Origin: a virus
Lineage: Duplodnaviria > Heunggongvirae > Uroviricota > Caudoviricetes
Reading direction: 5' to 3' (one strand)
DNA: 64,000 nt
Virus record (IMG/VR): IMGVR_UViG_3300032030_000019
Made by a program: the position numbers and the translations under genes
Shown: positions 1,238-58,199 of the stretch, piece by piece
Layout of the letters: each line of letters starts with the position of its first letter
Position numbering within the stretch: position 1 is the first letter of the stretch
Notes under the pieces: generated by a model
What the model was told of the DNA's origin: nothing
Databases searched by the model: none
What the model saw: the letters and a program-made list of their open reading frames with translations, nothing else

Positions 1238-1539
1238 ACGTCTGAATCACCAATGTTGTTCCACACGTAGGTCTGAAGTTTGGTGAGATTAGTATGCATG
1301 TTTTCAGCTAAATCCCAGTTCGTACCTTCGCACAAAACGACTTGAGAGTCATCATCTACATAATTATATAGTGCCTTAAACTCCCACTCATCTATTACGG
1401 CGAACCTATGTGGACTTTGTGCTAACTTTACTTGGATAATTCTACGTGTATCCCCTATACATAAAGTCCTATTTTTGCTCATTGTATTATTCCGCATTGA
1501 CGTAACGTGAAGAAGAGAACTACAATGCCAAATATACAA
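1228..1539 (-). CDS. hypothetical protein, 'D-x-D-x-W-G' tail family
   Basis: C-terminal ...GDSDVWG shared with 4905..5189 and 1656..1889; true start probably the internal Met at about 1482 (MSKNRTL) coupled by ATGA to a small upstream ORF. Confidence 0.4.
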   Translation of the reverse strand: MYIWHCSSLLHVTSMRNNTMSKNRTLCIGDTRRIIQVKLAQSPHRFAVIDEWEFKALYNYVDDDSQVVLCEGTNWDLAENMHTNLTKLQTYVWNNIGDSDVWG

Positions 1540-1628
1540 CCAGCCAAAATAAGTCTAGCTATATCAGCGGTCCCATCTTTCTCACTATCACTTTCAGGAA
1601 ATAATTCGATTATATACTTTCGTCCCAT
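1480..1628 (-). CDS. small membrane peptide (49 aa, below the ORF-track cutoff)
   Basis: manual translation: MGRKYIIELFPESDSEKDGTADIARLILAGCIFGIVVLFFTLRQCGIIQ; one TM helix; stop overlaps the next ATG (ATGA). Confidence 0.25.
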
Positions 1629-1655
1629 ACACGCCTCCAACGTTTACATCATAAT

Positions 1656-1889
1656 CTAATCCCATATATCCCTGTCATAGCTGAATTGCCCCCAACGGTA
1701 GGTATTAAGTTTGGACTCGTCACTATAGGCGTTACCACTTAAATCCCACGAGGCGGGTTCACACCAAGTCACAAGACCAAATGTATATTCATATTGAACT
1801 AAAGCCTTGAGTTCCCAGAAATTCTCTACTACAGGTGCGACGTTGTGTTTTACTCCACGTATTATCTGAATATCACCAATGTCCATCAA
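1656..1889 (-). CDS. hypothetical protein (77 aa)
   Basis: ORF in the one-strand gene chain; C-terminal ...YDRDIWD resembles the D-x-W tail family. Confidence 0.4.
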   Translation of the reverse strand: MMDIGDIQIIRGVKHNVAPVVENFWELKALVQYEYTFGLVTWCEPASWDLSGNAYSDESKLNTYRWGQFSYDRDIWD

Positions 1890-2431
1890 ATTATTTTACA
1901 TTGGCACGAACGCATAACCTCAAGTGCAGCCTCATGTTTTTCCTTCGTTAGCCCAGCACACGCATCGGCCACGATAGTTACGTCCACACCTTCGATGGCT
2001 TTTATGGCCAACGCATTGGAAACGACGCAAATGTCAGTGCACGTACCAACCATCGTAACTGTTGAATGCGGCTCAATGAATGCACCCCACTTATCATATC
2101 CGAAGTGGGATTTATTGAGAATTGTATCATCTAACATAGGTGCCAACTCTTTTGTAATCTCCCAACCTTTAGTCTGATAGAGACAATGCGGCACAGGAAG
2201 ATACGTACCCTCTAACGTATTCAAATAATCTTCCTTGTGCGTGTCACGTGTGTAAATAATGTGATCACCACGTTTACGCGCCTCGCTTAACAACGTTTTA
2301 ATTTTGGGGATAATCTTCACTGCGTCCTCATTTGCGAGTGCCCCCGTTGTAAAATCGTTCTGCATATCAATAACCACAAAATATGCAGACGGTGTGTTTT
2401 CCTTTTCACTGCTTACTTTTTTTGTAAACAT
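1886..2431 (-). CDS. pncA: nicotinamidase / isochorismatase-family hydrolase (PncA-like)
   Basis: VVIDMQNDF (D-x-Q-N-D-F), DTH, catalytic-Cys motif VGTCTDICV; start set at the internal Met (MFTKK) with GAAGGAG SD right after the nadD stop. Confidence 0.75.
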   Translation of the reverse strand: MFTKKVSSEKENTPSAYFVVIDMQNDFTTGALANEDAVKIIPKIKTLLSEARKRGDHIIYTRDTHKEDYLNTLEGTYLPVPHCLYQTKGWEITKELAPMLDDTILNKSHFGYDKWGAFIEPHSTVTMVGTCTDICVVSNALAIKAIEGVDVTIVADACAGLTKEKHEAALEVMRSCQCKII

Positions 2432-2432
2432 A

Positions 2433-3053
2433 TTAGGCTCCTTCTTCCCTAAGATTTTTCGCATAAATTTTCACTAACTTCACACTCGATACATCAATCA
2501 AGTGCTGTAGCGATTTCCTCACTTCCGTTGCGCTTCCATCGCCGACGTATGCTACGTGTTCAACGTTTGTGCGTATGTTAATATTCTCAGACGTATACCC
2601 TGGACGATCCACTACAAGAATATCAGACTCACGTAGAATAACTTCATGTTTACGCCATAAGTGTAACATCTCGAAAGAGTCACCACCTATAACTGTTGTA
2701 AACGTATATTCGTTGCCCCATTTTTTCTTAACATCAAGTAACGTGTCAGCGAATCCACGTGTCGTATCCCTCAAATACGCAATTTCCATATCATCCACAA
2801 CTACGTTGCCCCAATTATCCGTAGCCTCACGTAACATAGCAACACGTTCAATGAAGTCAAAATTATATTCGTCTTCATCCTGTTTTTTACGATGCCATGT
2901 TACTGTAGTCGGAATGACCACTACCTGATCAAACCGATCCTTAAGCATCTCAATTATGCCTATATGTGTGGATGTGACAGGGTTAAATGTCCCACCATAT
3001 ATTGCTATTTTCATTCTAGTCTCCTGTTTACCATAATTTCTCCTGTTTACCAT
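2433..3053 (-). CDS. nadD: nicotinate/nicotinamide mononucleotide adenylyltransferase (NadD/NMNAT family)
   Basis: GGTFNPVTSTH (GGTFxPxHxGH-like), VIGGDSFEMLHLW...VVDRPGY, GSATEVRKSL match the NadD signature blocks; an alternative start is the Met of MKIAIYGG at 3014. Confidence 0.8.
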   Translation of the reverse strand: MVNRRNYGKQETRMKIAIYGGTFNPVTSTHIGIIEMLKDRFDQVVVIPTTVTWHRKKQDEDEYNFDFIERVAMLREATDNWGNVVVDDMEIAYLRDTTRGFADTLLDVKKKWGNEYTFTTVIGGDSFEMLHLWRKHEVILRESDILVVDRPGYTSENINIRTNVEHVAYVGDGSATEVRKSLQHLIDVSSVKLVKIYAKNLREEGA

Positions 3054-3412
3054 GATTCGACTCCAAAACCTATTCCCGGGTTGTAATATCCGTAATTCTT
3101 TTGGACCCCATATAATTCTATAAATATACCCAAATGTTCTGAAATCAAGTGACCGTCACACAGGTTCAACACAACCTCGTCCCGTGCTTCCCCTAAAAAT
3201 TGTCTACTATCATCATAGACCACAATACTAGCAAACAAATAGGTACCGACTTCTATTTTTTTCTTCATGTATTTACGCCCATGTATCCGTTTGCACCTTA
3301 AATGCACGATACGTTTTTGATGGATGTACCATGTCCGTACGTACGTGATAACTTTCATGTGGAAACGACCATTGATTACTACAGTCAGGGAAACGTAACA
3401 GGCCAAATTCAC
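3047..3412 (-). CDS. small protein, NPG-x-x-F...E-x-W tail family
   Basis: C-terminal YYNPGIGFGVESW; 7-nt stop/start overlap (ATGGTAA) with nadD. Confidence 0.5.
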   Translation of the reverse strand: MNLACYVSLTVVINGRFHMKVITYVRTWYIHQKRIVHLRCKRIHGRKYMKKKIEVGTYLFASIVVYDDSRQFLGEARDEVVLNLCDGHLISEHLGIFIELYGVQKNYGYYNPGIGFGVESW

Positions 3413-3537
3413 CGATTATGTGTCCACAAAGTTCTGTATATCTATTCCATGAACGAAATAAGCATAGTAATGTAAAGTCAACCTTACTTCCATTGCATAA
3501 AATCTTACGTTGGTAATAATCACCTACGTCTTTTGGT

Positions 3538-4449
3538 TTACGTCCCACTTTCAAACTCCAACGTTACACCACAATGAGGACATGTATTCTGTTCTCCTGT
3601 AAACTTTCCACCACATTCAGGACATTCGTACTCTTCCTCCTCATCCTGTACCTCAATCATATCGCACAAGTATTCATACGTATTCGCCGACATATGTTCT
3701 TTACCCTTGCCATACGTAACCAAGTCGGCAAGATCGTCAGAAGAAAACAGGCGCGCACGTACAAGATCTGAGATGATGTGTATAGGAAATTCCTGATGAT
3801 ATATAAAATCATCCGCGAGTGCTTGTACACTGATCTTATAATCCAAGAGCTCCATAGCTAATCTTAGATTAACCCTATTTCGTCCTAACGTAATCCCCAT
3901 CATATCATTAGGTACGTGAACCAATGCATGACGTCTCCACTCATCTAGATCGACTCTCATTGGTAATGTTAAATTAAGTGCATCAAGTATAAGTTTTTCC
4001 TGTCTCTCATTACCTGTAATCTGAATAACATCCATCGCACGATCATGCAGTACTTCACACAGATGTTCTTTATTAGCACCCCACTTTCCAATGAACGCAC
4101 CCATGTCACCCATAACACTGATCTTTGATCGTTCTCCGGGAACACGTACGGCTTTATATACGGTTACGTCACCATTACGTACGCCATCAATATCTTGCGT
4201 TAGTTTCAACAGATAATCAACGTTTCTGTCTAAGCTCAACGTATATCCTGTTGGCGTACGTTGAATACCTGTTACAAGTACATCTATGCAACTTCCGGTA
4301 TCACGTTCACTGATATACGGGACGTGAGCTTTCGGAAGTAATCCATCGATCTTTTGGTGATGAAACAAGATTAACCACTTGTTATTAACGTCTTGTGCGA
4401 TCTCCCCCGTTAATACGTCGCCTACGTGTTTTTCCAAACTACTTTTCAT
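3538..4449 (-). CDS. NusA-like RNA-binding protein (S1 + KH + C-terminal Zn ribbon), paralog 1
   Basis: S1-like N-terminus (VGDVLTGEI...GLLPKAHVP...TLSL), KH GxxG motif (AFIGKWGANK...MDVIQITGNE), CPECGG...CPHCG zinc ribbon. Confidence 0.5.
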   Translation of the reverse strand: MKSSLEKHVGDVLTGEIAQDVNNKWLILFHHQKIDGLLPKAHVPYISERDTGSCIDVLVTGIQRTPTGYTLSLDRNVDYLLKLTQDIDGVRNGDVTVYKAVRVPGERSKISVMGDMGAFIGKWGANKEHLCEVLHDRAMDVIQITGNERQEKLILDALNLTLPMRVDLDEWRRHALVHVPNDMMGITLGRNRVNLRLAMELLDYKISVQALADDFIYHQEFPIHIISDLVRARLFSSDDLADLVTYGKGKEHMSANTYEYLCDMIEVQDEEEEYECPECGGKFTGEQNTCPHCGVTLEFESGT

Positions 4450-4479
4450 AACGTTATATCCCTCCCACGTTATAATAAA

Positions 4480-4914
4480 TTACAAGCATATAGACATATT
4501 GGTCATAGCGGGTTCATACTCATAATTTATGTTTCTATAGATATTTACTTGACACCATCCTATACATCCAAACTCGTCATCCTCGGTATCATCCCACTCT
4601 TCACCTATACGCAAAAAGTGGACTCCATAATCCTCGTTGTCTAAATCCCGCACCTTGTGCATATAGTTCGTGAGAAATTGCGAATAGAGCATGCAAGAAG
4701 GGTCCCATCTTACACAATCGAAACATAAACATATATGTGCAACATCTTCGGGTCTTGATACACCGCACTTTGTTATGTACCCGCTTTGTATAATTGACTC
4801 TATAGCCTGAGGATCAGTAGCTTTTGTTTTTCTCATTTCATCCAAAAGCAACTCATATGCCTTTGGGGTCATTTCTATTACTATATCATGAGTGTAGCCC
4901 ATAATCACCCCCAC
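4480..4914 (-). CDS. hypothetical protein (144 aa)
   Basis: minus-strand ORF; start overlaps upstream stop by 10 nt. Confidence 0.4.
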   Translation of the reverse strand: MGVIMGYTHDIVIEMTPKAYELLLDEMRKTKATDPQAIESIIQSGYITKCGVSRPEDVAHICLCFDCVRWDPSCMLYSQFLTNYMHKVRDLDNEDYGVHFLRIGEEWDDTEDDEFGCIGWCQVNIYRNINYEYEPAMTNMSICL

Positions 4915-5189
4915 ATGTCAGCATCATCAGTATTAAATCTAACTATATTATCGATATATCCTTGCTTATCCAGTCCCGTATGTACAAAGCATTCTCCGTC
5001 ATGATTTACCCTGCCTATTTCAGATATACAATACCAATAACCAGATTGATATAGAATAGTAGCAGGTAAAGTCGTATTATTCCATGCATGTACATACGTT
5101 ACCTTTCCTCCTACATCACTCTCATTATAACTCATACGTGTGTCCTTACACTTAACACACAACATATTTCGAATACGAACAGACCCCAC
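4905..5189 (-). CDS. hypothetical protein, 'D-x-D-x-W-G' tail family
   Basis: C-terminal ...TDDADMWG, same coupling geometry as 1228..1539. Confidence 0.4.
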   Translation of the reverse strand: MGSVRIRNMLCVKCKDTRMSYNESDVGGKVTYVHAWNNTTLPATILYQSGYWYCISEIGRVNHDGECFVHTGLDKQGYIDNIVRFNTDDADMWG

Positions 5190-5596
5190 GTTACTAAGAT
5201 CTGTCCAATATGTAGAGCTTGATCAGCAATTAAGTTAAGAACACCAAGGTTCGCCTTCGCATGGTCTATACGCGCATGTAAGTCCATATTTAAAAAGAGT
5301 GTACCGAGATATGCTATCCAAACGTACCATTCGTATATATGAAAATAAGCCAACGTTACTACGAATATTGGCAAGAAAATAAAACACGCCCACTCAAATG
5401 CGTGTAAGTACAAACACATTATGAAGTCATTTTTATACGTGGCGTAATTGCATCCAAGTTCGTTACACTTACGTTCCCACCAACTTGATTGTTTGAGATC
5501 GCAAAATATACCTTGTAGATGGAAGTCTGATATAATATGCAGTAAAAGTGACGAAAAAAGTGTTAAACCAAATACAATGATATCAAGTTGTTCCAT
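5132..5596 (-). CDS. integral membrane protein (about 4 TM)
   Basis: several hydrophobic helices (IVFGLTLFSSLLLHII, ACFIFLPIFVVTLAYF, IAYLGTLFL). Confidence 0.45.
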   Translation of the reverse strand: MEQLDIIVFGLTLFSSLLLHIISDFHLQGIFCDLKQSSWWERKCNELGCNYATYKNDFIMCLYLHAFEWACFIFLPIFVVTLAYFHIYEWYVWIAYLGTLFLNMDLHARIDHAKANLGVLNLIADQALHIGQILVTWGLFVFEICCVLSVRTHV

Positions 5597-5598
5597 TA

Positions 5599-5934
5599 CT
5601 ACATCTCCTCCTCAATATCATCATAATCTTCCTCATTCTCGTCGTCCTCGTCATCCTCGTTGCTCTCATCTTCATCGTCACCATACTCACTGACGAAGCC
5701 TTTATCCCAATCATCAAATTCATCTTTGAACATCTCATAAAACCCGGCTGGACCGTATTCTATAAGATCGAAGTAGTATTCCGTGGCTTTCTTGGGGGCA
5801 TTACACAAATCAGGATCTTCCTTACACATCTGGCGTACTTCATCCCAATCGTCTTCAGGAAGTCCACACTCGAAGTCCATCTTTACCCATTCCTCAATAC
5901 GACGTTTTTGTTCGGGGGTTAGCTGTTTACTCAT
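5599..5934 (-). CDS. highly acidic small protein
   Basis: C-terminal DDEDESNEDDEDDENEEDYDDIEEE; start moved to an internal Met just after the upstream stop (the track ORF begins 5' at 6021 inside the previous gene). Confidence 0.4.
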   Translation of the reverse strand: MSKQLTPEQKRRIEEWVKMDFECGLPEDDWDEVRQMCKEDPDLCNAPKKATEYYFDLIEYGPAGFYEMFKDEFDDWDKGFVSEYGDDEDESNEDDEDDENEEDYDDIEEEM

Positions 5935-6358
5935 TGTCTTCATCCTCCTCATCATTTTCATTCGCTTCATACTCATCACTATACTCTTCATTTGCCTCTT
6001 CTCGCTCACTGAATACCTCATAAAACGCGTAAGGTGCCATACAGCAACGCGCTATCACATCCAGGGTTTCCCAGGCTCCATCTCTTACGTCTTGCAAGAA
6101 TCGTTCTGCATCGCAAAATTCCCCATATGCAAACGCAACTGTGGGTAAATCAGATAACACACAATCTCGCGCCTCTCCGCTATTACAGAAGTACGACCCT
6201 GTCATATTGCCTGTGATCTCATCACTGTTCATAACCTCTTCTTCTATTTGCTCCTTAGTCATGTGCAAGCATTTCTCTTCGTTATTATCGAGCCATTCCT
6301 CAACGTCCGCTCGTACAGCCTCATAGTAATAATCGCTGTCTTCTGAAGGTTCAAACAT
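5927..6358 (-). CDS. acidic protein (143 aa)
   Basis: Asp/Glu-rich termini (EYSDEYEANENDEEDEDNE); coupled to neighbours. Confidence 0.45.
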   Translation of the reverse strand: MFEPSEDSDYYYEAVRADVEEWLDNNEEKCLHMTKEQIEEEVMNSDEITGNMTGSYFCNSGEARDCVLSDLPTVAFAYGEFCDAERFLQDVRDGAWETLDVIARCCMAPYAFYEVFSEREEANEEYSDEYEANENDEEDEDNE

Positions 6359-6974
6359 CTTGCTCCTCCTGACCGTTCATTGCTTCCCATAATGACGCAC
6401 GTAAAAGCGAAAGTTGCGATAATGCGTGTGTGACGTTGTACTTACGTTCATCCGTTTCCTCAAATACGTCAGCAAACTCATCATATGTCATTTCTATAAC
6501 TTCAATATCCTCTGCCTCATCTAATTTTTGATCACCCGCTTTTTCACATCCTAACGCACAGTAGATATATACGTTATTAGTTTGTATAGCTGGATTAACA
6601 CTGTATTTTCCAACGAAATGCCAATTATTACTCGTATATCCTGTTTCTTCAAGTAATTCACGTTTAGCTGCATTAAGTGCGTCTTCACCTTCTTCGATTG
6701 TACCTGCTGGCAATTCGTACGTAACTTCATTCGATCCTATACGATGTTGTTTTACGAATAACACACGTCCATCCTTTGTTTTTGCGTATATATGTACCCA
6801 ATCACTCATTTCAAGTCCTACAAACGTACGTGTAAGTTGTTTTGACGGTAAGTACGCTCTAATCTCGATTGTGTTAAATATACGATTATGTCCCATTGTG
6901 TTTACATCTTTTATCTGCCAGACGTGATTTTCAAACCCTTCTTTGTTTTTTGTGTTTTTATTATATCCGAACAT
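6351..6974 (-). CDS. NUDIX hydrolase
   Basis: Nudix box GTIEEGEDALNAAKRELLEETG (G-x5-E-x7-REUXEEXGU). Confidence 0.8.
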   Translation of the reverse strand: MFGYNKNTKNKEGFENHVWQIKDVNTMGHNRIFNTIEIRAYLPSKQLTRTFVGLEMSDWVHIYAKTKDGRVLFVKQHRIGSNEVTYELPAGTIEEGEDALNAAKRELLEETGYTSNNWHFVGKYSVNPAIQTNNVYIYCALGCEKAGDQKLDEAEDIEVIEMTYDEFADVFEETDERKYNVTHALSQLSLLRASLWEAMNGQEEQDV

Positions 6975-7054
6975 TCTTACTCCTTACTTAACACCCATAA
7001 ACAAACTGCCCCGGCTAACACAAGCACGAGGCAGCGAATTAATATTTCTTCCAC

Positions 7055-7510
7055 TTAGAACTGTTGAGGTGGCATCTGGAATGACGATGCCGGTACCGCC
7101 TGTGGTGCTACAGGTTGTGCATTACCTGTAGATTCAGGGTTGAAGTACGGGTTTGCCTCAGGTGCATAATGGTCAGTCTGAGGTGCTGGTTGCTGATCAC
7201 CCTTTGCCCGACTCAAAAACTGAATGTTGTTTACAATTACCGTCAGTTTACTATGCTTTGCCCCTGTTTGATCTTCCCATCGATCCTGTCGTAAGCTACC
7301 TTGTACACATACCTGCTGACCTTTCTGACAGTACTGATTAATAAGATTTGCCGTACCCTCAAACGCTTTACAATCAATAAAACTCACGTCATTTTCTTTC
7401 ATACCATTTACTGCCAATGTGAACGTAACCCGTGGATGTCCTGTCTGTGACATTGCATAATCAGGGTTTGCTGTTAATCGTCCAATAAGTCCTAAATTGT
7501 TGTAATCCAT
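7055..7510 (-). CDS. ssb: single-stranded DNA-binding protein (OB-fold SSB)
   Basis: NLGLIGRLTANPDY...RVTFTLAVNG...KLTVIVNNIQFL matches the SSB OB-fold; Gln/Pro-rich tail ending ...PPQQF. Confidence 0.85.
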   Translation of the reverse strand: MDYNNLGLIGRLTANPDYAMSQTGHPRVTFTLAVNGMKENDVSFIDCKAFEGTANLINQYCQKGQQVCVQGSLRQDRWEDQTGAKHSKLTVIVNNIQFLSRAKGDQQPAPQTDHYAPEANPYFNPESTGNAQPVAPQAVPASSFQMPPQQF

Positions 7511-12087: not shown

Positions 12088-12314
12088 ACCTCCGAGTCAA
12101 AGCTAAAGCCCGGATTGTAATGTGAGCGTTGTAGATTCATATGAAAATCGAACGTTTCATTGAACTCCAGGATAAATGACGAGCGGTTTTGATAGAGTAA
12201 GACGTCAATGTAATTACAATAAATGTAATAACAACCAAAGACGCCCTCTCCATCCTCAGACATGCTACGGCACAGATAGGAGTTACCAATTACGTTAGCG
12301 ATCACGTTTGTCAT
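12081..12314 (-). CDS. small protein, NPG tail family (YNPGFSFDSEVW)
   Basis: same tail; GGAGGTG SD and a TGATG overlap with the next gene. Confidence 0.5.
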   Translation of the reverse strand: MTNVIANVIGNSYLCRSMSEDGEGVFGCYYIYCNYIDVLLYQNRSSFILEFNETFDFHMNLQRSHYNPGFSFDSEVW

Positions 12315-13422
12315 TATTGCAACGTGAGCACAACATTTGGCAATTTTCTTCCACAGTACGTCCGCCCTTTGACCATGGCACTACGTGATCACCTTGCATG
12401 TCCTCAAACGTAAACTCACCACCACATATAGCGCACTTATGCCCCTGACGTTCATACATACGTCTCTTCATTTGTTCAGGGAACGTACGTATGGATAAGT
12501 ACTTCTCATCGTGAGTTGTACGTTCAGACAATATGTACGGAATTATACCTGTTTGTTTAGTTACATCCTCATCCATAACCAACTTATTTATGGTTTCACG
12601 TAATTCATTTGTGTTATATACGTGGCCATGATATTTGTTATAGAGTGTGCCCCAATCCTGATTCTCCGTTAACTTTTTCGGTACGTCAGGGAACATACGT
12701 TTGGCCCACGATATAACCTCTTGAAAGTACAACCACAATTCGTTGGCATCCACGTCATGCTGATGTAGGGCCATGTACTGTTCCAACGTTATGCCGTCAC
12801 GTTCAGCTATCCACGTCAATGCCTTTTCCAAATATTCCTGACGTATGGAGTTCGCCTTTACATACCCGTCTGACATTTGTGCCGCAGCGCACCCACGTTT
12901 ACTGAAATAACGTTTGGCGTCTGAGATGAACGTTCCGGCATACGTAGCGTTTAACAATTCTTGGTTTGTTAATGGTACACCTGCAATGTTTATAATCTTG
13001 AACCATGCCAAACGTTCCTCTGTTGTACCCTCACATATGTATACTGTAACCTCGTAATCAAGTATACGTTGCTGCTCAGTTTCGGTAAGGTTACGCATGT
13101 ATTTTTCATGTCCGTCAATTTTAATAGGGTACATATTCTCCAAATACTGACCTATTGAGATCGTACGTTGCTGTCCATCAATAACCTCATATTCTGAGTC
13201 TGACACTTTTGACCAATACATCGTGTTCAATGGGAAACCATTGTAAACTGAATTAATGACAGCTCTACGTTGTTGATCGTTATACACAAACTCACGCTGA
13301 TACATGGGGCGTACAGTTAACTTATGATCAGCATTGTAATACGTGAATACGCCATCATCTTTAAGATCTATATACCCCTCACATAGATCTCGTACTTTAA
13401 TTTTTGCTTCTGTTATCTTCAT
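12295..13422 (-). CDS. DUF262 (ParB/GmrS-like, DGQQR motif) + C-terminal HNH endonuclease fusion
   Basis: YQREF...VIDGQQRTISIGQYL (DUF262 hallmark) and C-terminal HKCAICGGEF...GDHVVPWSKGG...NCQMLCSRCNNDK (HNH); 26-nt overlap with the upstream methyltransferase. Confidence 0.7.
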   Translation of the reverse strand: MKITEAKIKVRDLCEGYIDLKDDGVFTYYNADHKLTVRPMYQREFVYNDQQRRAVINSVYNGFPLNTMYWSKVSDSEYEVIDGQQRTISIGQYLENMYPIKIDGHEKYMRNLTETEQQRILDYEVTVYICEGTTEERLAWFKIINIAGVPLTNQELLNATYAGTFISDAKRYFSKRGCAAAQMSDGYVKANSIRQEYLEKALTWIAERDGITLEQYMALHQHDVDANELWLYFQEVISWAKRMFPDVPKKLTENQDWGTLYNKYHGHVYNTNELRETINKLVMDEDVTKQTGIIPYILSERTTHDEKYLSIRTFPEQMKRRMYERQGHKCAICGGEFTFEDMQGDHVVPWSKGGRTVEENCQMLCSRCNNDKRDR

Positions 13423-14347
13423 CTTGTGCTCTCCTTTTAATTAAGATTCTAAAATACGGACATTGTCCATTAATGCTTAGATCTTTGTCATTGTTACCTT
13501 TACGAAATTTAATAATTTCAAATTGTTCAGGATTGTACTTATCTACAAAGGTGACGGGGACTCCCATAACTCCGTAATAATCTTTAGGAATCAGAGCTAT
13601 ATCTCCGACTCGTTCCTTCTTTTTGTTTGTTTTCCCGATATCAATGGCATCATAATTATCATATTTAGGGAATTTCATAGGGTCATATGTTTCCCATAAG
13701 ATGAGGTCTTCATGACGCTTTTGTATATCTAAGTTTGTAAACCAACGACATAACCCCGAAACTTTCTTTGTAGTTCCACTTGGTGTATCAAATTCATTAG
13801 GACTAGTATAACCTAACCATACTCGATTATCCTTGATTAACGGAAATATCTCTTTATAAGTTATGCTATTTTTATTTCCAACAATCAAAAACTTTTTATT
13901 ATATTTCATCAATAATTCTATATAGTCACGAAAAAGACTAAATGGTGGGTTAGTCACAATGATGTCAGCTTCCTTTAACAACTCAACACATTCTTCGCTT
14001 CTAAAATCTCCATTACCACTTAGAAACGATTGTGTACCAATATCAATATCATTATCATTACCGCCTTCGTATTCGAGTTTATATGAAAACTTATCGCGTT
14101 CATAATGCGTAGATATGAGTTTTTTTAACCCTAACAACTGAAATTTAAGGTGGAAGTATTTCCAAAAAGCAGATGTTGTTGGGTCATCGCAATTACAGAA
14201 TACGATCTTATTTTTGAAATGTTTGTCATAATGGCACAGTTCGTTGGATACATCATCTAATTTTGTATAAAATTCATCATTCTTTTCTTTCTTTGCCTTA
14301 TGTAAATTCTTATTACTCATGTTTATTACCCCTCCTATACTCACCAT
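13397..14347 (-). CDS. N6-adenine DNA methyltransferase, EcoRI-methylase-like
   Basis: IVTNPPFSLF (motif IV NPPF), KNDEFYT, KIVFCNCDDP, YYGVMGVPVTF...NPEQFEI; from memory this resembles M.EcoRI-family enzymes. Confidence 0.65.
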   Translation of the reverse strand: MVSIGGVINMSNKNLHKAKKEKNDEFYTKLDDVSNELCHYDKHFKNKIVFCNCDDPTTSAFWKYFHLKFQLLGLKKLISTHYERDKFSYKLEYEGGNDNDIDIGTQSFLSGNGDFRSEECVELLKEADIIVTNPPFSLFRDYIELLMKYNKKFLIVGNKNSITYKEIFPLIKDNRVWLGYTSPNEFDTPSGTTKKVSGLCRWFTNLDIQKRHEDLILWETYDPMKFPKYDNYDAIDIGKTNKKKERVGDIALIPKDYYGVMGVPVTFVDKYNPEQFEIIKFRKGNNDKDLSINGQCPYFRILIKRRAQDEDNRSKN

Positions 14348-27866: not shown

Positions 27867-28988
27867 TTATCCTTTCAAAACCATTCTAGCTTGTTCTGCA
27901 TTTTCAAAGATGCACTCCTTGCCGTTTATGATTATCTTAACTTTATTGTTAGAAGAAGTATTGTTGACTTTTACATCTACATTTACTTCAATCTTTGGTT
28001 CTGACGTTTCCTCAGGTTTAACACGGAACTCGAACCTCTCATCGTCAAAATACTCAGGTTTTATAGTTACCATTTTAATCCCAGGACAAAGATCTCCCCA
28101 TTCATTCGTTGAGCTTCGTCGTATCTGAATAGGCTTGTCCTCCTTGAAATACGCCCATTTAACCTCATAGTTTGGGTCGTAGTAGGCGAATCTATAGTAT
28201 CCTGCGCTACCTTGAAGACAAAAGGGATACACATCGCTCTCTGAGTAGTGTGATAGTGTGCCCATCTCGCTAGGTCCTTTATGATGAATCGCCCTTTGAA
28301 GGGTTTCTATATAATCACCACAAAACACTTTTTTCCCACGCAACACCTCATCCCATTCAAAATGTACGAATTTTGAATTGTATAAGTTCACTTCTTTTCT
28401 CTTTTCGGTGTTGTTCGTTTCAGTCATATTAACCTCCTTTTTTGGTCTCCTAGTTATAGCACAATCAGAATCGACTATTCCTTCCGGTCTAATCTCTAAC
28501 TGTGCGGGTATTGAAATATTTTTCAGGTTAGAACAACCAAAGAATACATGGCTACCAATACTTGTTACGCTATCGGGTATCGTGATACGAGTTAGACTGT
28601 TGCAATACTTGAATGCTAGATCACCTATATTCGTCACACTGTCAGGTATAACCACATTCATCAAACTGTAGCAGTCTCTGAATGCATTATCGCCTATGTT
28701 CATCACGCTGTCAGGCATCGTCACACTCGTCAAGCCAGTGCAGCCATAGAATGCATAGTCACCAACAATTGTTACTCCGTCCTTTATTACGACTGACTCA
28801 ATCTGCTGACACCCGTAGAATAGGAAATCGGGAACCACGCTATTCTTGCCCGTATTTATGACTACTTCCTTGATGTCATAATACCCCACTAGACCATTAT
28901 AAGCTGGTCCACTAACACCTTCGAACGACCAGATTACTAGCCGATCATCGTCTATACAGAAATCGTTCTTTATTCTAAGAATACCCAT
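27867..28988 (-). CDS. BspA-type leucine-rich-repeat protein
   Basis: tandem units of about 23 aa (IPDSVTNIGDLAFKYCNSLTRIT / IPDSVTSIGSHVFFGCSNLKNIS); start set at MGILRIK with AGGAGG 6 nt upstream. Confidence 0.7.
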   Translation of the reverse strand: MGILRIKNDFCIDDDRLVIWSFEGVSGPAYNGLVGYYDIKEVVINTGKNSVVPDFLFYGCQQIESVVIKDGVTIVGDYAFYGCTGLTSVTMPDSVMNIGDNAFRDCYSLMNVVIPDSVTNIGDLAFKYCNSLTRITIPDSVTSIGSHVFFGCSNLKNISIPAQLEIRPEGIVDSDCAITRRPKKEVNMTETNNTEKRKEVNLYNSKFVHFEWDEVLRGKKVFCGDYIETLQRAIHHKGPSEMGTLSHYSESDVYPFCLQGSAGYYRFAYYDPNYEVKWAYFKEDKPIQIRRSSTNEWGDLCPGIKMVTIKPEYFDDERFEFRVKPEETSEPKIEVNVDVKVNNTSSNNKVKIIINGKECIFENAEQARMVLKG

Positions 28989-29030
28989 TTTACGCCTCCT
29001 ATTGCTACGCAACCGTTTCGCTCACGCTCA

Positions 29031-34104: not shown

Positions 34105-35340
34105 TCAACCTCTTGTCCCTTCAGCAAATCTATTTTTTTTAATATGCACTCTTTTCGGAAATGCATTTTCCCCGATTAATACTCCACTGGGTATAGTTAC
34201 ACTCGTCAGTTGAGTACAATCCTCGAATGCATAATCACCAATGCTCATTACACTGTCAGGTATTGTTACACTCGTCAGTCTGCTACAACACAAGAATGCA
34301 CCACTGCCTATGTCTGTCACGCTGTTACCTATTGTTACACTCGTCAGACCATCACAGCCACTGAATGCATAATCACCTATGCTTGTCACGCTGTCAGGTA
34401 TTGTTACACTCGTCAGACCATCACAGCCACTGAATGCATAATCACCTATGCTTGTCACGCTGTCAGGTATTGTTATGCTCGTCAGACCGATACAGCCACT
34501 GAATGCATAATCACCTATGCTTGTCACATTACTCGGTATCGTCACACTCGTCAGGCCGCTGCAGTTATAGAATGCATGGCTGCCTATGCTCGTCACACTG
34601 TCTCCTATCGTCACACTCGTCAGACCATCACAGCCACTGAATGCATAATCACCTATGCTTGTCACACTGTCAGGTATTGTTATACTCGTCAGACTACTAC
34701 AACCGTTGAATGCATGGTTGCTTATACTCGTCACGCTGTCAGGAATAATCAAGTCTGTAACAAGCTTTCCATCCACCTCAAGTTGGTAGGTGAAATTAAA
34801 AGGCCAAGGAGCCCAGTGAATGTGACACCATTGCTCGATAGTCCCCTTATATTTTATTAGGAGGGACTGATTTAACAATGCATTCTCCCCAATATAGCTA
34901 ACAGTATCTGGGATCACGACACTGTCATTTTTCATATATGAGATCAATCCAAAGGGTAGATACACAATCCCTTTCATGAAGACCTTGTATCTTTTTTCCT
35001 CAAACTTGGGGCCTTCATCCTTGTCCCAACCGAGGCTATTTACTTCCTTGACCTCTTGAAGATACTCATCCAGGATCTGGGTATCATTTAAAACATAATC
35101 CTTCCACTCTATTACATTGGAGTATGGAAGTTTGTATCTGTTTTTATAGAGGAGTCCCCAATTATACTCCTCAAGGTTTTGATGTTTTGCCCTGTTCATT
35201 ACAGAGAGAGCAGTGGTTCTGTTAATTGTCTCCATCTTTTGGATCTTGGCTTTTTCTTTGTCAAACTCCTTCATACCCGGCGTCCTCCTTAACAAACACT
35301 TACGTCCGACATAACGCAAGAGAGGTTTTACGGAACCCAT
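34105..35340 (-). CDS. BspA-type leucine-rich-repeat protein with near-identical tandem repeats
   Basis: at least 9 consecutive units of 23 aa (IPDSVTSIGDYAFSGCDGLTSVT) encoded by near-identical 69-bp repeats. Confidence 0.7.
   Translation of the reverse strand: MGSVKPLLRYVGRKCLLRRTPGMKEFDKEKAKIQKMETINRTTALSVMNRAKHQNLEEYNWGLLYKNRYKLPYSNVIEWKDYVLNDTQILDEYLQEVKEVNSLGWDKDEGPKFEEKRYKVFMKGIVYLPFGLISYMKNDSVVIPDTVSYIGENALLNQSLLIKYKGTIEQWCHIHWAPWPFNFTYQLEVDGKLVTDLIIPDSVTSISNHAFNGCSSLTSITIPDSVTSIGDYAFSGCDGLTSVTIGDSVTSIGSHAFYNCSGLTSVTIPSNVTSIGDYAFSGCIGLTSITIPDSVTSIGDYAFSGCDGLTSVTIPDSVTSIGDYAFSGCDGLTSVTIGNSVTDIGSGAFLCCSRLTSVTIPDSVMSIGDYAFEDCTQLTSVTIPSGVLIGENAFPKRVHIKKNRFAEGTRG
34190..34770 (-). repeat. 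69-bp near-identical tandem repeats (coding; LRR units)
   Basis: e.g. ccatcacagccactgaatgcataatcacctatgcttgtcac... recurs almost verbatim at a 69-nt period; this also explains the spurious plus-strand ORF 34210..34860. Confidence 0.8.
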
Positions 35341-42100: not shown

Positions 42101-43319
42101 ACAAGAACACAGGATAACAGTTAGAACCGTAAGCGGGGAATAACTTCTCTGCCAATTTCACACCATAAAAGGCATCATAGCAGCAATATACACCCAGTTT
42201 TTCAGGATCACAAGCATACCAATCAGAATACTCATCCCAATAGTTGCTAAGAAGGTTAAAGAGATGTCCATTGTTATTTTTTACATCCTGTACGTAAAAT
42301 TCGCATGCATCAATATACGTTTGTGGCAATTTCTCTTTCGGATCCAACACCTGTCTTACGTTATCCTCTTGATCTAAACAGAAGTACAACGCGGACTTAA
42401 ATGAAGCAAACGTAGGATGCTGCGCACGTATGGCTTTTATGTATGCCTGTTCAGTACTCAACGTATCATTCCATGATGGTGCATGTAGGTAATACTGTAC
42501 GTTATACTTAAGTGAGTGTTTTTGATCGTCAGCTGTTGTAAGGGCGTACGCATCCTGAATGTAGTAGAAACGTTGGTACATTCTGTACAGAACCATCATT
42601 TCAAACGCACAGTTATACGCCCATACGTTTGCAGCATGCGTATCCATATATTGTTTGAACTTAATCATGAATTGTGACGCAAAGAACATACTGTCAGGTG
42701 TTTGTTTGGACTCATCGTAATCGAAATCCTTACGAAAATCAAAGAAATATGCGGTATCTTTAAGTGATAACGCAAATCCTGAAATCCTAAAATCCTCATC
42801 TTCAGGAAATCCAGCTGTCTCAAAGTCCAATCCTACCCACGTAGTTTTATCGGGCATAAATACTGTCTCAATTATACGTGTGCCTTCCTTCAGCCCAACG
42901 CAAATCGTCTCAGGCAAGAACGTATGTCCACCTTCCACCCCATCAGACAAGAAGTATGTGTATTTTGAATCCACCAATACATCCTCATCTACGGAAGGTT
43001 TGGTTCCAAATACGAGTACGTTCTTGCCTATATGGATTGACGGTAGGGCTGTAAATGAGGCATATGTAAACTTACGTAAACCTATGTGTATTTTTAATGC
43101 CCGATGTAATTCCAATAGTTTATCATATATTTTACGCCCATACGCAAGGAATACGTTATTCTCAGACGTTTGTATTAAATTAAAAAACGTATCCTCATCT
43201 ATCAACTCAATTGTACCCTCAGGAAGAGTTGAATAATGATTTTTAATTCCTCGATGTAAACCTTGTTTATCTTTTACAATATAGCGCATGTTATAATCCT
43301 TTAGAAAAGTTGTGAGCAA
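39195..43319 (-). CDS. family A DNA polymerase with 3'-5' exonuclease domain (1374 aa)
   Basis: Exo I motif GLDFETAG; motif A DVSQMEPR; motif B RGIAKTCMISSIYGQG (R..AK....G..YG); motif C VIHDS. Confidence 0.85.
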   Translation of the reverse strand: MLTTFLKDYNMRYIVKDKQGLHRGIKNHYSTLPEGTIELIDEDTFFNLIQTSENNVFLAYGRKIYDKLLELHRALKIHIGLRKFTYASFTALPSIHIGKNVLVFGTKPSVDEDVLVDSKYTYFLSDGVEGGHTFLPETICVGLKEGTRIIETVFMPDKTTWVGLDFETAGFPEDEDFRISGFALSLKDTAYFFDFRKDFDYDESKQTPDSMFFASQFMIKFKQYMDTHAANVWAYNCAFEMMVLYRMYQRFYYIQDAYALTTADDQKHSLKYNVQYYLHAPSWNDTLSTEQAYIKAIRAQHPTFASFKSALYFCLDQEDNVRQVLDPKEKLPQTYIDACEFYVQDVKNNNGHLFNLLSNYWDEYSDWYACDPEKLGVYCCYDAFYGVKLAEKLFPAYGSNCYPVFLFNKYLGMELKMSGIKVDVEKATKYAKYCQNICSNYEILLNKIFLRSYMKQNKWCTIEIPKQTLRIIAEYPEVCQADPMKITKILLGRLCPKKPDWNIPSTFLNDMFGYDVSDEVSSVLDEEAMSQGLDSYTRKKKTAEPIGKFIQTMIHLSELVESFNRFIVADVYIALKEYIKNAGLTYMWSPLQKYIRMEDAWIAIDVARAWYKKYGTKIEAQTKRGKKDVTVTLYDTLCSRFKKVSIDLGVTTHGVAEDIPENNLRWLLEEVHNEVTIFEPKKQVSTLAQVYDLRDLDDDYYLQFDLSTIVPKAVAEEFDGITHPEISAYRYLRLRACAEEITRFDEHIRVTEDPFVGTIYEGRDKLYFEKVCKYSSNDQFPEIFGAMLKHEYRDNYLVMYSTWQYIKANNVERTPEKIRELLTVFESKIDLLNQSDALDLFMPEVEIGSYYSREEGGRVSIMKREPAVWKKEFISDGVTFAEEYFQYLFDEPRNNMTTELPDDTYQLLAKLGFLTDFASVASKELNTYLKNILNGKHKIFYPGVHSGYFSDNGPKDTYVPTFAMNTLATKRCTSGYHTFLPHSDTMKCLIVEPGRIKTYFDVSQMEPRSICYISHDPVFMDIYNSGKDAYMELAKITWPDHVNDPDFKAKYRGIAKTCMISSIYGQGDAGLAARAGVTTERVTEMKRAMFGTWREVDRLRQHKLHYLQQTGEIETFLGDRLHGDKDDAFTTAVNYGNQGNASVVANEGFELSIMNIRALDIDVSAESVIHDSNQNNLPIRDLFEADICYRNYFRKYIFEKYGIDFKYDLDILYNSCEHMSYSLDVETMEGKISGPKGSVDYVFTYLTEPDITILEDEITDNPDKGLVDPIGEFIKNPTGGPRAKPHYICDYPEFLSPYIRTVKFKVNRHVRGIETATKPLGIPSYFDKVKRWDEHLIPGMEDDEEKAQNKQSLHIRDNPSKIYPVDIANKLLAG

Positions 43320-43837
43320 ATGTCATTATACTCTTGCCATATTTTGGTATTATGTAAGGGCTTACGTAATGCCTCACATATGCCTTTGTAATACCACCCC
43401 TGATCCACTTTACCTCGGTTGAACTTGGTCCAAACTATATCACCTTTCGTGTTAACTTCTTTGAGTAATGAACGTACGTTAGATAATTTATCAGCTAAGC
43501 AAATCATCTGTACGTCATGACTTTCTTTAGGTAATTGTGAGATCGTATGCAATTTACGTTGCTCCCACGTTTTTGTTTTATCTTCAGACTCAGCTTGTAC
43601 TAACTGCAATACGTACGGTCCGAATAAGTTCTTGATCTGTGCTGACGTAGTAGACGTATCCTCAAGTGTGTCATGAAGTAAGCCCGCAATTTGCACCAAC
43701 TCAGGTTCACCATTCTCACGTAATATACGTGCCACCTCAAGTGGGTGCACAATATACGGCTCACCTGTTGACTTACGTTGTTGCCCTTTATGAGCTTCGG
43801 TAGCAAATTTTTCTGCTTTTATATATAAATCTGTCAT
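43301..43837 (-). CDS. RelA/SpoT-type HD-domain (p)ppGpp hydrolase (small alarmone hydrolase)
   Basis: EAHKGQQRKSTGEPYIVHPLEVARIL...IAGLLHDTLEDT, the canonical SpoT HD signature. Confidence 0.75.
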   Translation of the reverse strand: MTDLYIKAEKFATEAHKGQQRKSTGEPYIVHPLEVARILRENGEPELVQIAGLLHDTLEDTSTTSAQIKNLFGPYVLQLVQAESEDKTKTWEQRKLHTISQLPKESHDVQMICLADKLSNVRSLLKEVNTKGDIVWTKFNRGKVDQGWYYKGICEALRKPLHNTKIWQEYNDICSQLF

Positions 43838-47887: not shown

Positions 47888-48454
47888 TTACTCCTTAGTT
47901 TTTTGTGCATTTGTTATTGCTATTTGAAAAGCTTCCTTGGTTTCAAACAATTCGCTTCCATTCCCATAAAAGACCACGTTATAGCGAAGCATTTCACGTA
48001 CGAGCGACGAACTAACGTACGCTATACTTGGGTCAGACATAATATATAACGTTTGTACGTACCCATTAAGCCTACGATTAATATGTTCGAGATTTTGTTC
48101 ATAACTCAAATCTGACACATCACGTAAGCCACGTATAAGCGCTTCAGCACCTACTTCAGCACAATATTGCATGGTCGTACGATTAGGTGCAAGCGTACGT
48201 ACGAACAACTTTTCCCTATGTGGCATATCCCCTTCTAACGACGCAAAAATAATATCCATGCGAACGTCCGTGCTAAACATAGGTGCTAACTTTCCAGGAT
48301 TAGACGCAACAAGAATATGCACTTCATCAAACACATCCAACGTCATGACTTTACGTATAATCTCCGTATGCCCCTTTGTAAACGGATCAAATGTACCTGG
48401 AAATACCGCTATCTTATTTTTACATTCTCTATCGGTAGACACATCGCTTGGCAT
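47888..48454 (-). CDS. coaD: phosphopantetheine adenylyltransferase (CoaD/PPAT)
   Basis: IAVFPGTFDPFTKGHTEII, LIRGLRDVSDLSYEQNLEHINRRL, SSSLVREM align block by block with bacterial PPAT. Confidence 0.85.
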   Translation of the reverse strand: MPSDVSTDRECKNKIAVFPGTFDPFTKGHTEIIRKVMTLDVFDEVHILVASNPGKLAPMFSTDVRMDIIFASLEGDMPHREKLFVRTLAPNRTTMQYCAEVGAEALIRGLRDVSDLSYEQNLEHINRRLNGYVQTLYIMSDPSIAYVSSSLVREMLRYNVVFYGNGSELFETKEAFQIAITNAQKTKE

Positions 48455-54435: not shown

Positions 54436-54630
54436 TTAAATTTTATATTCTTTTCGGTCCTCGAACTCTTGTGCTCTACCTTTGTTCCAATTTTTAATAG
54501 CCCGATAATACCCAACGATGCGAGAATATACCTCGGTCTCTTGGTCTCTCTTGCCATCAAGTATGTCTTTACGTCGTTGTTCTAGATCGGCTAAGCGATC
54601 TGTAAGTTCTTGTTTACTTGCTACTCGCAT
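54436..54630 (-). CDS. nrdD: glycyl-radical domain of NrdD encoded as a separate, overlapping ORF
   Basis: SRIVGYYRAIKNWNKGRAQEFEDR matches the RxxGYxxxxxxxNxGK glycyl-radical tail of NrdD, but lies in the -1 frame, overlapping the nrdD stop by 10 nt. Confidence 0.6.
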   Translation of the reverse strand: MRVASKQELTDRLADLEQRRKDILDGKRDQETEVYSRIVGYYRAIKNWNKGRAQEFEDRKEYKI

Positions 54631-57600: not shown

Positions 57601-58199
57601 TTAACTAGCTGATTGAAGAGTGTGCTTAAATGCTTAGCTGGTTTTGATGTTATTTTGCCGGGCACACCACCAATACCTTCCCTGATTAAATCTAGGAAAT
57701 TATGTCCAACGCAATAACATGCCAACATACTTAAGTCATGTATATGAAACTTGCAAGCTCGATGTGCATCGCCTATCTCTTTGGGATATATCTTATTCAA
57801 CCAGTAGTTAGCCGTAACAGCCCCACTATTATTGAGAATCATCCCACCAAGTGAGAAACCCACAGACGCATTCTCCTTAACACGCCAATCACTTTCGTCT
57901 AGATATTTGTCAACCAAGTCTATCGGACGTATGCTACGTAACTGCTCACGATTATACCGATATTTGATGTATGCACGAGCGACGTTAGGATTGTACTTCA
58001 TCAGAACTTCTTCTATCATATCCTGAATCTGTTCTACGTTCATTTTGTCTACGAGCCTATCCTCTAATTCATGAAAAACAAAGTTTCCCATCTCAGGCTC
58101 ATTTGTTGCATGGCAGGCTTTATCGACGGCATCTTGTATTTTCAGACGGCTAAATTCGACTTCTCTACCATCACGTTTAATAACTGTTTTTAATTCCAT
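54621..58199 (-). CDS. nrdD: anaerobic (class III) ribonucleoside-triphosphate reductase NrdD precursor interrupted by two inteins
   Basis: N-terminal ATP cone; NrdD blocks (YSSVDTYVAPF, SQAPFSNFT, CCRLRLD...GGGLFG) and a C-terminal Zn ribbon; exteins total about 670 aa. Confidence 0.9.
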   Translation of the reverse strand: MELKTVIKRDGREVEFSRLKIQDAVDKACHATNEPEMGNFVFHELEDRLVDKMNVEQIQDMIEEVLMKYNPNVARAYIKYRYNREQLRSIRPIDLVDKYLDESDWRVKENASVGFSLGGMILNNSGAVTANYWLNKIYPKEIGDAHRACKFHIHDLSMLACYCVGHNFLDLIREGIGGVPGKITSKPAKHLSTLFNQLVNYNGLLQNENSGAMAYSSVDTYVAPFIKIDNLSRKEVYQCVQSLLFGLNCSSRWGCVPISTRLLTQDGWKQCSEVKIGDVVYTVNPKTRKVEFNSVKKITRKLNDKEFLIKLYNKDCNYEQIVSYEHRVYTGNGEIHRAYEFLDEEANFTVPLSVDEGFGLTSKFESIERINIPVEVEKIPYDGEVWCPTTDNGVVFFQDINGHEFISANSQAPFSNFTLDWIVPNDLAETYCWVGGKQVDFKYKDCQKEMDMFNEVLLDLFEKGDADGRLYSYPICTYSITKDFDWESSNAKKLFEITCKYGMPYFQNFINSDLSPSDIRSMCIMPDTVIRILNPDGKWEEDSIKNIFDNYDENEIKVLTRWGYYPIKRKIVIKYSGKMYKFTTQSGKILITTPDHPHLIYAERNKNDKSLIIRQAKDLKVGDKFSVRYEKNTIQLWNNKNRGKTCEERFGEEKGKLYRQKCSDRNKRLGRWQGNSNPMRTMTDEQNRERMKKISQTSMGHPVSEKCRKASSERWKANNPIHSQGYWDHVQETNGHTTIASDWEFKFRKELDALGLEYKHQFVINDSNGNFTGIADFYIPSKNLVIELETNFSGDTHCYYNDEIEDSPYVKKPWNQVIRNAGYNLLVFDPSNNDDSYRGYINYRDEIVSIELIDYDGLVYDLEVDSPDDYNQSESLGHTFYANNILTHNCCRLRLDKRELMKRGGGLFGAAEKTGSTGVVTINLPQLGYRFKGDKEGFYKELDCLLVMAKESLVIKRKTIEELLEGQFYPYSKVYVQSYDTFFNTIGINGCNECIRNFTNDEHDITDEWGQAFTNELMDYINSRLSDFQEETGLLFNLEATPAEGTGYRFALHDKKNYPDIITANDNGDPYYTNSTWLPATFTDDIFEALDIQDQFQVKYTGGTVFHAYLGERIHNWKACAELIKTIFTNYRLPYLTISPTFSICPKHGYLDGEQKFCPKCRDEELARVDAQIREVKEAIQKREMEETNKCE
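55533..56633 (-). mobile_element. intein 2 (367 aa) in NrdD with embedded Vsr/DUF559-like (PD-(D/E)xK) endonuclease
   Basis: starts CIMPDTVIRIL, block B TTPDHPHL, ends VYDLEV...GHTFYANNILTHN followed by Cys +1 at the CCRLRL active-site region; internal WEFKFRKELDALGLEY...GIADFYIPSKNLVIELE resembles DUF559. Confidence 0.75.
56973..57437 (-). mobile_element. mini-intein 1 (155 aa) in NrdD
   Basis: starts CVPISTRLLT (block A), TxxH-like block B (SYEHRVYT), ends YDGEVW...NGHEFISAN followed by Ser +1; parallels the end of intein 2. Confidence 0.65.

Follow-up and report, generated by a model that had tools for sequence, protein, structure and literature searches.

Depletion of nicotinamide adenine dinucleotide (NAD+) is a major bacterial anti-phage strategy. 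Among the NAD+ reconstitution pathways (NARP) of phages, NARP2 joins Nampt to Nmnat, as in Vibrio phage KVP40, where the two components are NadV and NatV, the latter an NMNAT-Nudix fusion. NARP1 consists of Adps and Namat (Osterman et al. 2024, 10.1101/2024.02.11.579819), and NARP3 pairs the transporter PnuC with NadR, a bifunctional NadR-like enzyme (PMC13464706). From annotation only, complete salvage or Preiss-Handler pathways have also been assigned to 174 gut jumbo phages, among which a pncB-nadD-nadE cluster was reported and phage pncA was mentioned (Li et al. 2024, Microbiome, PMC11662467). The present analysis concerns a 64,000-nucleotide stretch of viral DNA (IMG/VR record IMGVR_UViG_3300032030_000019, hereafter the window), in which a nadD-like adenylyltransferase gene is directly followed by a pncA-like nicotinamidase gene, with a NUDIX hydrolase gene nearby. 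The three genes probably form a reduced phage version of Preiss-Handler salvage that would rely on the PncB and NadE of the host.

Organization and conservation of the nadD-pncA pair

Both genes lie on the minus strand, where the maximal open reading frames (ORFs) are 2433-3053 for nadD and 1886-2464 for pncA. The nadD-like gene, named for the nicotinate/nicotinamide mononucleotide adenylyltransferases, is assigned to 2433..3014 (193 aa; 206 aa from the alternative upstream start at 3053), and the pncA-like gene to 1886..2431 (181 aa; 192 aa from the alternative start at 2464). The later starts are preferred because the N-terminal extensions of the longest ORFs show no conservation in relatives; the likely true starts are ATG 3014 for nadD (MKIAIYGG), with AGGAGA 5 nt upstream, and ATG 2431 for pncA (MFTKK). 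The minus-strand junction reads GAAGGAG-CCTAAT-ATG: the TAA of nadD (2435-2433) is followed by a single spacer base (2432) and then by the ATG of pncA (2431-2429). As read from the sequence, the Shine-Dalgarno element of pncA, GAAGGAG (2438..2444, minus strand), is embedded in the 3' end of nadD and ends 6 nt before the ATG. The sequence-only reading had described the two genes as adjacent and translationally coupled, with the pncA ATG 1 nt past the nadD stop, and the junction confirms this description. A scan for promoters and terminators gave no signal beyond shuffled expectation and did not set the limits of the operon.

The adjacency is kept in four other contigs (L084, L085, L091 and L092), whose NadD proteins are 86-48% identical to that of the window. 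In L084 (NadD 86%, PncA 90%) and in L091/L092 (NadD 51%, PncA 70%), nadD is directly followed by pncA, and in L085 (NadD 48%, PncA gene partial) the two genes share 14 nt, the start of pncA lying inside the end of nadD. The wider order SSB-NUDIX-...-NusA-like-x-x-NadD-PncA-...-Band_7 is also retained in L091. Compared with L084, nadD has a dN/dS of 0.074 and pncA one of 0.087, values typical of purifying selection and similar to that of the adjoining NusA-like gene (0.075). Because the pairing is kept and dN/dS is low (∼0.08), nadD and pncA are held by selection as a unit.

PncA retains the metal site of nicotinamidases

PncA belongs to the Isochorismatase family (PF00857, 1e-29), and its translation contains the motifs VVIDMQNDF, DTH and GTCTDICV that had first drawn attention to it. 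Its top PDB relative is the pyrazinamidase/nicotinamidase of P. horikoshii (1ILW/1IM5, E=8e-15), and the match list also includes genuine nicotinamidases from Acinetobacter, Streptococcus, Mycobacterium and yeast. In the HMMER alignment with 1ILW/1IM5, D10, D52, H54, H71, K94 and C133 all pair with identical residues, the metal ligands D, H and H within RDTHKEDYLNTLEGTYLPVPHC corresponding to 1IM5 D52, H54 and H71. We take D10/K94/C133 to be the catalytic triad and D52/H54/H71 the zinc ligands of 1IM5, a numbering that fits the alignment. Across a MAFFT alignment of distinct phage homologs, D10, D52, H54, H71 and C133 are invariant (64 of 64), as is the Lys of the xK(x)(T/H)FG motif in the same set. 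An Asp-x-His...His metal site sets nicotinamidases apart from other hydrolases of the isochorismatase family, so there is a strong case that PncA is a nicotinamidase, with a predicted conversion of nicotinamide to nicotinic acid. The protein falls below the NCBIfam equivalog for the bifunctional nicotinamidase/pyrazinamidase, PRK11609, whose cutoff is built on the E. coli enzyme (36 bits versus a cutoff of 174, with only the N-terminal 50 residues matching), and it is nearer to the archaeal/Gram-positive PncA type than to that of E. coli.

NadD resembles bacterial NaMN adenylyltransferases

NadD carries a cytidylyltransferase-like domain (CTP_transf_like, PF01467, 7e-17), and its best NCBIfam match is TIGR00482, nicotinate (nicotinamide) nucleotide adenylyltransferase (5e-26); no NadM- or NadR-type NCBIfam match was obtained for it, the match being NadD-type instead. 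Its translation holds the previously listed GGTFNPVTSTH, VIGGDSFEMLHLW and DRPGY. The first of these represents the GxFxPx(H/T)xxH motif, while SxTxxR is present as SATEVR, and a GGDS...W segment pairs with GQDS...W of the E. coli enzyme. Residues G7, G8, T9, F10, N11, P12, T14, H17, S161, T163 and R166 are invariant in the four members of the lineage. The top PDB sequence matches are E. coli NadD (1K4K/6KH2), followed by the NadD proteins of B. subtilis, P. aeruginosa and B. anthracis; matches to phosphopantetheine adenylyltransferase (PPAT) are weaker and cover the N-terminal 70 residues only.

An AlphaFold2 model computed from a shallow alignment (pLDDT 76, pTM 0.75) was compared with the PDB using Foldseek: bacterial NadD structures fill ranks 1-44, with PPAT first at rank 45, and TM-scores are modest (∼0.5). 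Sequence and model together support a bacterial-type nicotinic acid mononucleotide (NaMN) adenylyltransferase rather than PPAT, NadM or NadR, although the lineage is divergent: none of the phage NadDs compared with it exceeds 29% identity, and structural alignment with E. coli NadD gives 23-24%. The enzymatic identities first proposed for the two proteins are upheld by these checks, at the level of both residues and fold.

The adjacency of pncA and the NadD-PncB-NadE linkage seen in related phage clusters are what point, by analogy, to NaMN rather than nicotinamide mononucleotide (NMN) as the preferred substrate. Since this preference is not readable from the sequence, NadD might instead be an NMN adenylyltransferase of the amidated route, with PncA separately clearing nicotinamide, either to relieve NAD-consuming enzymes of product inhibition or to block base exchange by the host. 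GGTFNPVTSTH also bears what we presume to be a resemblance to the GxFNPxTxxH motif of the dual-specificity eukaryotic NMNATs. However, the top sequence and fold matches are all bacterial, NaMN-preferring NadDs, and NadD-type genes found elsewhere beside this PncA subfamily accompany PncB and NadE, i.e., the deamidated route. Removal of nicotinamide would, moreover, stimulate SIR2/TIR NADases and so harm the phage, and we regard the NMN alternative as decidedly unlikely.

It is very improbable that the two enzymes work off NAD+ altogether, for instance on a different amide and a different nucleotidyl acceptor, perhaps as part of nucleotide or DNA modification. Functions do vary widely within the isochorismatase and HIGH-nucleotidyltransferase superfamilies, and both proteins lie under their NCBIfam equivalog cutoffs; but the metal site that pairs with the zinc ligands of 1IM5 is invariant, and PncB, NadE and NadD turn up repeatedly beside the PncA subfamily, as the neighborhoods described below illustrate.

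PncA recurs beside NAD+ synthesis genes in other phages

A scan of IMG/VR returned 130 viral stretches with PncA relatives, the best 80 loci of which were examined, with neighbors classed by tblastn. Genomic neighborhood analysis reveals a recurrent linkage of PncA to NAD+ metabolism: more than 60 of the 83 classified PncA loci carry NAD+ synthesis genes. In ∼46 of the 80 best loci, the genes directly after pncA are those of a Prs-family protein, a NAMPT_N/NAPRTase-family protein and NadE, a series often interrupted by a Macro domain (weak match), NADAR or a small protein without annotation. True PncB proteins, scoring above the NCBIfam cutoffs, occur in ∼15 loci, 8 of which also encode NadD and NadE; in 14 others pncA has no such companion in the retrieved flanks, which reach at most 8 kb to either side. 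A neighbor-joining tree groups the PncA of the window with L003-L006 and L009. Two of these illustrate the deamidated route, L004 with the order pncA-nadE-pncB-nadD and a PncB above the NCBIfam cutoffs, and L005 with PncB and NadE.

Thousands of PncA homologs are also found in a collection of 5.8 billion proteins, and the contexts sampled there (56-73% identity) are all phage-like. One of these relatives shares the synteny of the window. The others reside in PncB + NadE clusters together with a homologous NUDIX gene, with or without NadD: PncA-x-NadE-...-PncB-NadD-x-NUDIX in L093 (284 kb), PncB-NUDIX-PncA-...-NadE in L095/L096, and PncB-202aa-NUDIX-PncA-NadE in L088-L090 (contigs up to 305-385 kb). 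The 202-aa protein, encoded at 4835-5443 of L089 (contig of ∼305 kb) between PncB and NUDIX, has no Pfam match. L093 has NadD at this position, and the 202-aa protein may be a non-homologous substitute for the adenylyltransferase step.

The Prs + NAMPT_N/NAPRTase pair of the larger group of loci is NARP1-like and lies directly downstream of pncA in L027 (8037-12458), in Phass-1 (L001, OQ749652; 7992-12430) and in ∼46 loci among L003-L082. Phass-1 is a published gut phage in which a nicotinamidase, a ribose-phosphate pyrophosphokinase and a nicotinamide phosphoribosyltransferase are annotated. Because PncA and NadE often flank this pair and no adenylyltransferase is found there, the pncA-prs-nampt-nadE layout suggests a deamidated NARP1, in which nicotinic acid and ADP-ribose pyrophosphate (ADPR-PP) would yield nicotinic acid adenine dinucleotide (NaAD), and NadE would complete NAD+. 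No description of such a branch turned up among the papers searched.

The NUDIX hydrolase is a recurrent partner of the PncA subfamily

The third component is a NUDIX hydrolase of the ADP-ribose pyrophosphatase (ADPRase) type (6351..6974, minus strand, 207 aa), encoded 3.3 kb upstream of the pair on the same strand. The sequence-only reading had called it canonical, which is well supported by the Pfam match (PF00293, 8e-18) and an intact Nudix box, GTIEEGEDALNAAKRELLEETGY (GX5EX7REUXEEXGU). Among NCBIfam models it fits NudE ADP compounds hydrolase best, and the top PDB matches are ADP-ribose pyrophosphatases (9JAX/8WV3, 2e-15; 1V8I, T. thermophilus Ndx4). A proline sits 15 residues past the Nudix box, and a proline downstream of the box is a signature of the ADPRase subfamily. 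Homologs with 32-40% identity (E=1e-11 to 1e-14) lie inside the PncB/PncA/NadE clusters of L089, L093 and L095, and this recurrence marks the NUDIX protein as a partner of the PncA subfamily. In the syntenic contig L091, the NUDIX gene is kept beside SSB and its product is 58% identical to that of the window.

The window encodes no other recognizable NAD+ synthesis step

The remaining enzymes of the pathway were sought by several means, including Pfam scans that took in most window ORFs of ≥150 aa and part of those <150 aa. PncB and NadE gave no match in the window by tblastn with three phage queries each, and Phass-1 queries for Prs-like and Nampt-like proteins (one each) gave nothing better than E=0.5. 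The SGGxDS motif of the NadE P-loop is absent from every frame of the window, no other NAD family was detected by Pfam among the scanned ORFs, and no PnuC-type Pfam match was seen among these ORFs, which include only part of those <150 aa; a NadR match of the adenylyltransferase, the other half of a NARP3, is likewise lacking. No further NAD gene appears within 8 kb past the right end or 1.2 kb past the left end of the window.

Because the window holds no PncB, NadE, Prs or Nampt, salvage of the Preiss-Handler type through host PncB and NadE is the simplest reading of the locus, and this part of the original proposal is supported by the searches. A more self-sufficient arrangement is conceivable. 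Over the 13,053 nt that allow comparison, the window is 99.99% identical to contig Ga0247609_10000077 (132,976 bp) of JGI metagenome 3300028888, and it spans only positions ∼67.8-131.8 kb of that contig, so that ∼67 kb lie outside. That part might supply the PncB and NadE of a complete Preiss-Handler set (PncB+NadD+NadE), which does not occur within the 64 kb, or else a NARP1-like pair, and dependence on the host would then fall away; the closest PncA relatives do have PncB and NadE. Yet these relatives cluster their NAD genes within a few kb of pncA, and none is found here in the 64 kb or in the 8 kb and 1.2 kb flanks. In the syntenic L091, no other precomputed NAD-related Pfam match lies within the 6.5 kb before or the 8 kb after pncA, and a strand switch past the window suggests that a separate module begins there. 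An entirely phage-encoded pathway is therefore an unlikely alternative to the host-dependent one.

A predicted deamidating salvage route

In the preferred reading, in which nadD-pncA and the NUDIX gene form a reduced, host-dependent Preiss-Handler module, PncA would first act on nicotinamide, the base freed when NAD+ is cleaved by NADase defense effectors, ADP-ribosyltransferases (ARTs) or sirtuins, and deamidate it to nicotinic acid. Host PncB would then join nicotinic acid with phosphoribosyl pyrophosphate (PRPP) to give NaMN, which the phage NadD would adenylylate to NaAD, and host NadE would amidate NaAD to NAD+. The NUDIX protein probably cuts ADP-ribose, the other cleavage product, to AMP and ribose-5-phosphate, which could flow back into the PRPP and ATP pools. 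The outcome would be a quicker rebuilding of NAD+ in the infected cell, most useful where the host cannot itself deamidate nicotinamide. The proposed chemistry is that of the established bacterial pyridine nucleotide cycle. It is tempting to speculate that PncA, the component common to otherwise differing phage gene sets, supplies the entry step that many hosts lack.

Several observations weigh against this interpretation. NadD scores 91.9 bits against TIGR00482, short of the curated cutoff of 112.45, as a divergent member, and only four close relatives of it exist among the 5.8 billion clustered proteins; because the lineage is isolated and lies below the cutoff, its substrate could have drifted. 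It is odd that a phage would encode the first and third of four pathway steps and leave out the second and fourth. The other ∼67 kb of the contig might hold the missing genes, and PncB and NadE of the host are assumed. Finally, eight ORFs separate the NUDIX gene from the pair, and its link to them is drawn by analogy with other loci.

What such a module would be for is a further matter. One tentative answer, somewhat doubtful at present, is that PncA, NadD and the ADPRase constitute a minimal deamidating NAD+ reconstitution pathway, channeling the nicotinamide released by TIR and SIR2 effectors to host PncB and NadE and thereby allowing escape from immunity. By extension, the pncA-adps-namat-nadE layout would mark a branch of NARP1 whose Namat-like enzyme makes NaAD. 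Alternatively, the genes could be general metabolic boosters with no link to defense, raising NAD+ turnover to feed NAD-consuming reactions of the phage or its host while replication proceeds. This is how phage Preiss-Handler and salvage clusters were read in the description of the ‘NAD-jumbo phages’ (Li et al. 2024, PMC11662467), and the pair does lie within a replication and nucleotide-metabolism module (NrdD, CoaD, HD hydrolases, SSB). However, no NAD-consuming enzyme (LigA, ART or Sir2) was detected in the window, and NARP1, NARP2 and NARP3 show that phage NAD+ synthesis genes counter NADase defenses. A booster function is also compatible with a counter-defense role, and taken by itself it is possible without being probable.

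Genome context and neighboring genes

The genome is that of an uncultivated large gut or rumen phage of ∼133 kb, below jumbo size. All large window ORFs are on the minus strand, with the strand switch located past the right end. They include a Pol III alpha-like polymerase, DnaB, SSB, a 5'-3' exonuclease, NrdD, HNH endonucleases, an EcoRI-like methyltransferase, HD hydrolases and CoaD, and many small ORFs have no family match. The phage origin is a well-founded inference from this replication module and the overall gene style; no structural gene was seen, and a PHROG scan of the 8 kb past the right end gave no capsid, portal or terminase match.

Megablast of positions 1500-7200 against the INPHARED phages gave no match. 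Since a tblastn search of phages with the 1374-aa DNA polymerase returned a single weak match, the lineage seems to have no cultured relative. In IMG/VR, an exact 34-mer search found no match, and a related-locus search found no locus with NadD or the NusA-like protein, the latter tried singly and as an alignment. By the searches made, the phage lineage has no close relative in INPHARED or IMG/VR.

Small paralogous proteins (∼75-100 aa) with a C-terminal D-[VIL]-W-[G/D/N] motif flank nadD-pncA (1001-1237, 1228-1539, 1656-1889 and 4905-5189, minus strand), one of them beginning at the pncA stop codon. Just upstream of nadD, 3538-4449 (minus strand) encodes the NusA-like protein, with KH domains (TIGR01953, 1e-25, partial) and a C-terminal zinc ribbon; it is 92% and 62% identical in related contigs and may be a phage transcription factor. 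The 154-aa membrane protein encoded at 5132-5596 was considered as a niacin or nicotinamide riboside (NR) transporter and set aside, having no Pfam match and only a weak match to a PHROG ‘membrane protein’ family. A second HIGH-motif nucleotidyltransferase, at 47888-48454 (minus strand), is not an NMNAT; it is CoaD, i.e., PPAT (TIGR01510, 113.5 bits, above the cutoff of 103.3), and adjoins DnaB in the replication module.

Elsewhere in the window, the anaerobic ribonucleotide reductase NrdD (54621-58199, minus strand, 1192 aa) contains an ATP-cone and an intein, according to the precomputed JGI Pfam annotation of the identical contig. A GmrSD_N + HNH endonuclease-like protein (12295-13422, minus strand) overlaps an EcoRI-type adenine methyltransferase (13397-14347, minus strand; PF13651, 4e-104), and the two look like a restriction or anti-restriction pair carried by the phage. 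Three nucleotide-hydrolase-like genes on the minus strand (43301-43837, 59525-60145 and 61955-62479) comprise an HD_4 protein with an HD domain of the (p)ppGpp-hydrolase type, a second HD protein and a dGTP_diPhyd_N protein, a set that suggests heavy manipulation of nucleotide pools. Two paralogs (27867-29012 and 34105-35340, minus strand) give repeated matches to phrog_18805 and phrog_35892, both families without an assigned function.

Comparison with known NAD+ pathways

The PncA + NadD pair had been put forward as a different combination from the known phage gene sets. This stands as far as the gene content of NARP1 and NARP2 is concerned, whereas the prior art, namely the clusters of Li et al. 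(2024) and NARP3, had been understated. PncA or nicotinamidase is not mentioned in the NARP1 preprint (Osterman et al., 10.1101/2024.02.11.579819) or in the survey of Iyer et al. (2022, PMC9503650), and a literature search found no ‘NARP4’ and no tested deamidating phage pathway.

The closest precedents are the clusters of the NAD-jumbo phages. They share with the window phage-encoded genes of the nicotinic acid route, an origin in gut or rumen metagenomes and a NadD-type enzyme, and the closest PncA relatives (L004 and L093) lie in such clusters. Unlike those phages, which are defined by a complete pathway, the window encodes only PncA and NadD, with NUDIX, in a genome of ∼133 kb. The clusters were described without experimental test and without analysis of PncA or of a NUDIX partner (Li et al. 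2024, PMC11662467).

NARP2, as represented by KVP40, resembles the window in starting from nicotinamide and in combining an adenylyltransferase with a Nudix domain of the ADP-ribose pyrophosphatase type. The NARP2 route is amidated, however: Nampt turns nicotinamide into NMN, from which a NadM-type NMNAT makes NAD+. The window, in contrast, has no Nampt, carries a NadD-type enzyme and a separate Nudix gene, and is predicted to deamidate nicotinamide first. With NARP1, it has in common the predicted reuse of NADase cleavage products, and the PncA subfamily lies directly upstream of the NARP1-signature pair in the loci noted above (∼46 of 80, and Phass-1); yet the window holds neither an Adps-like nor a Namat-like gene. 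The bacterial PncA-PncB-NadD-NadE cycle is matched in families, predicted chemistry, PncA residues and NadD motifs, but only two non-consecutive steps of it are present, and these are translationally coupled within a phage replication module.

The three characterized phage counter-pathways all use amidated intermediates, and a nicotinic acid route, if true, would bring in a fourth principle. The frequency of nicotinamidase genes beside the NAD+ genes of large gut and rumen phages would then be accounted for, and the success of such phages would be predicted to hinge on the salvage steps missing in the host. Gut phage nicotinamidases could, in turn, alter the supply of nicotinamide and nicotinic acid to the microbiome and its host. 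Preiss-Handler modules of phages are thus already known, from bioinformatics only, and what this locus adds is, as read from its sequence, a minimal form of two genes plus a predicted ADPRase; the two-gene form is the smallest version of the route and so the simplest to test.

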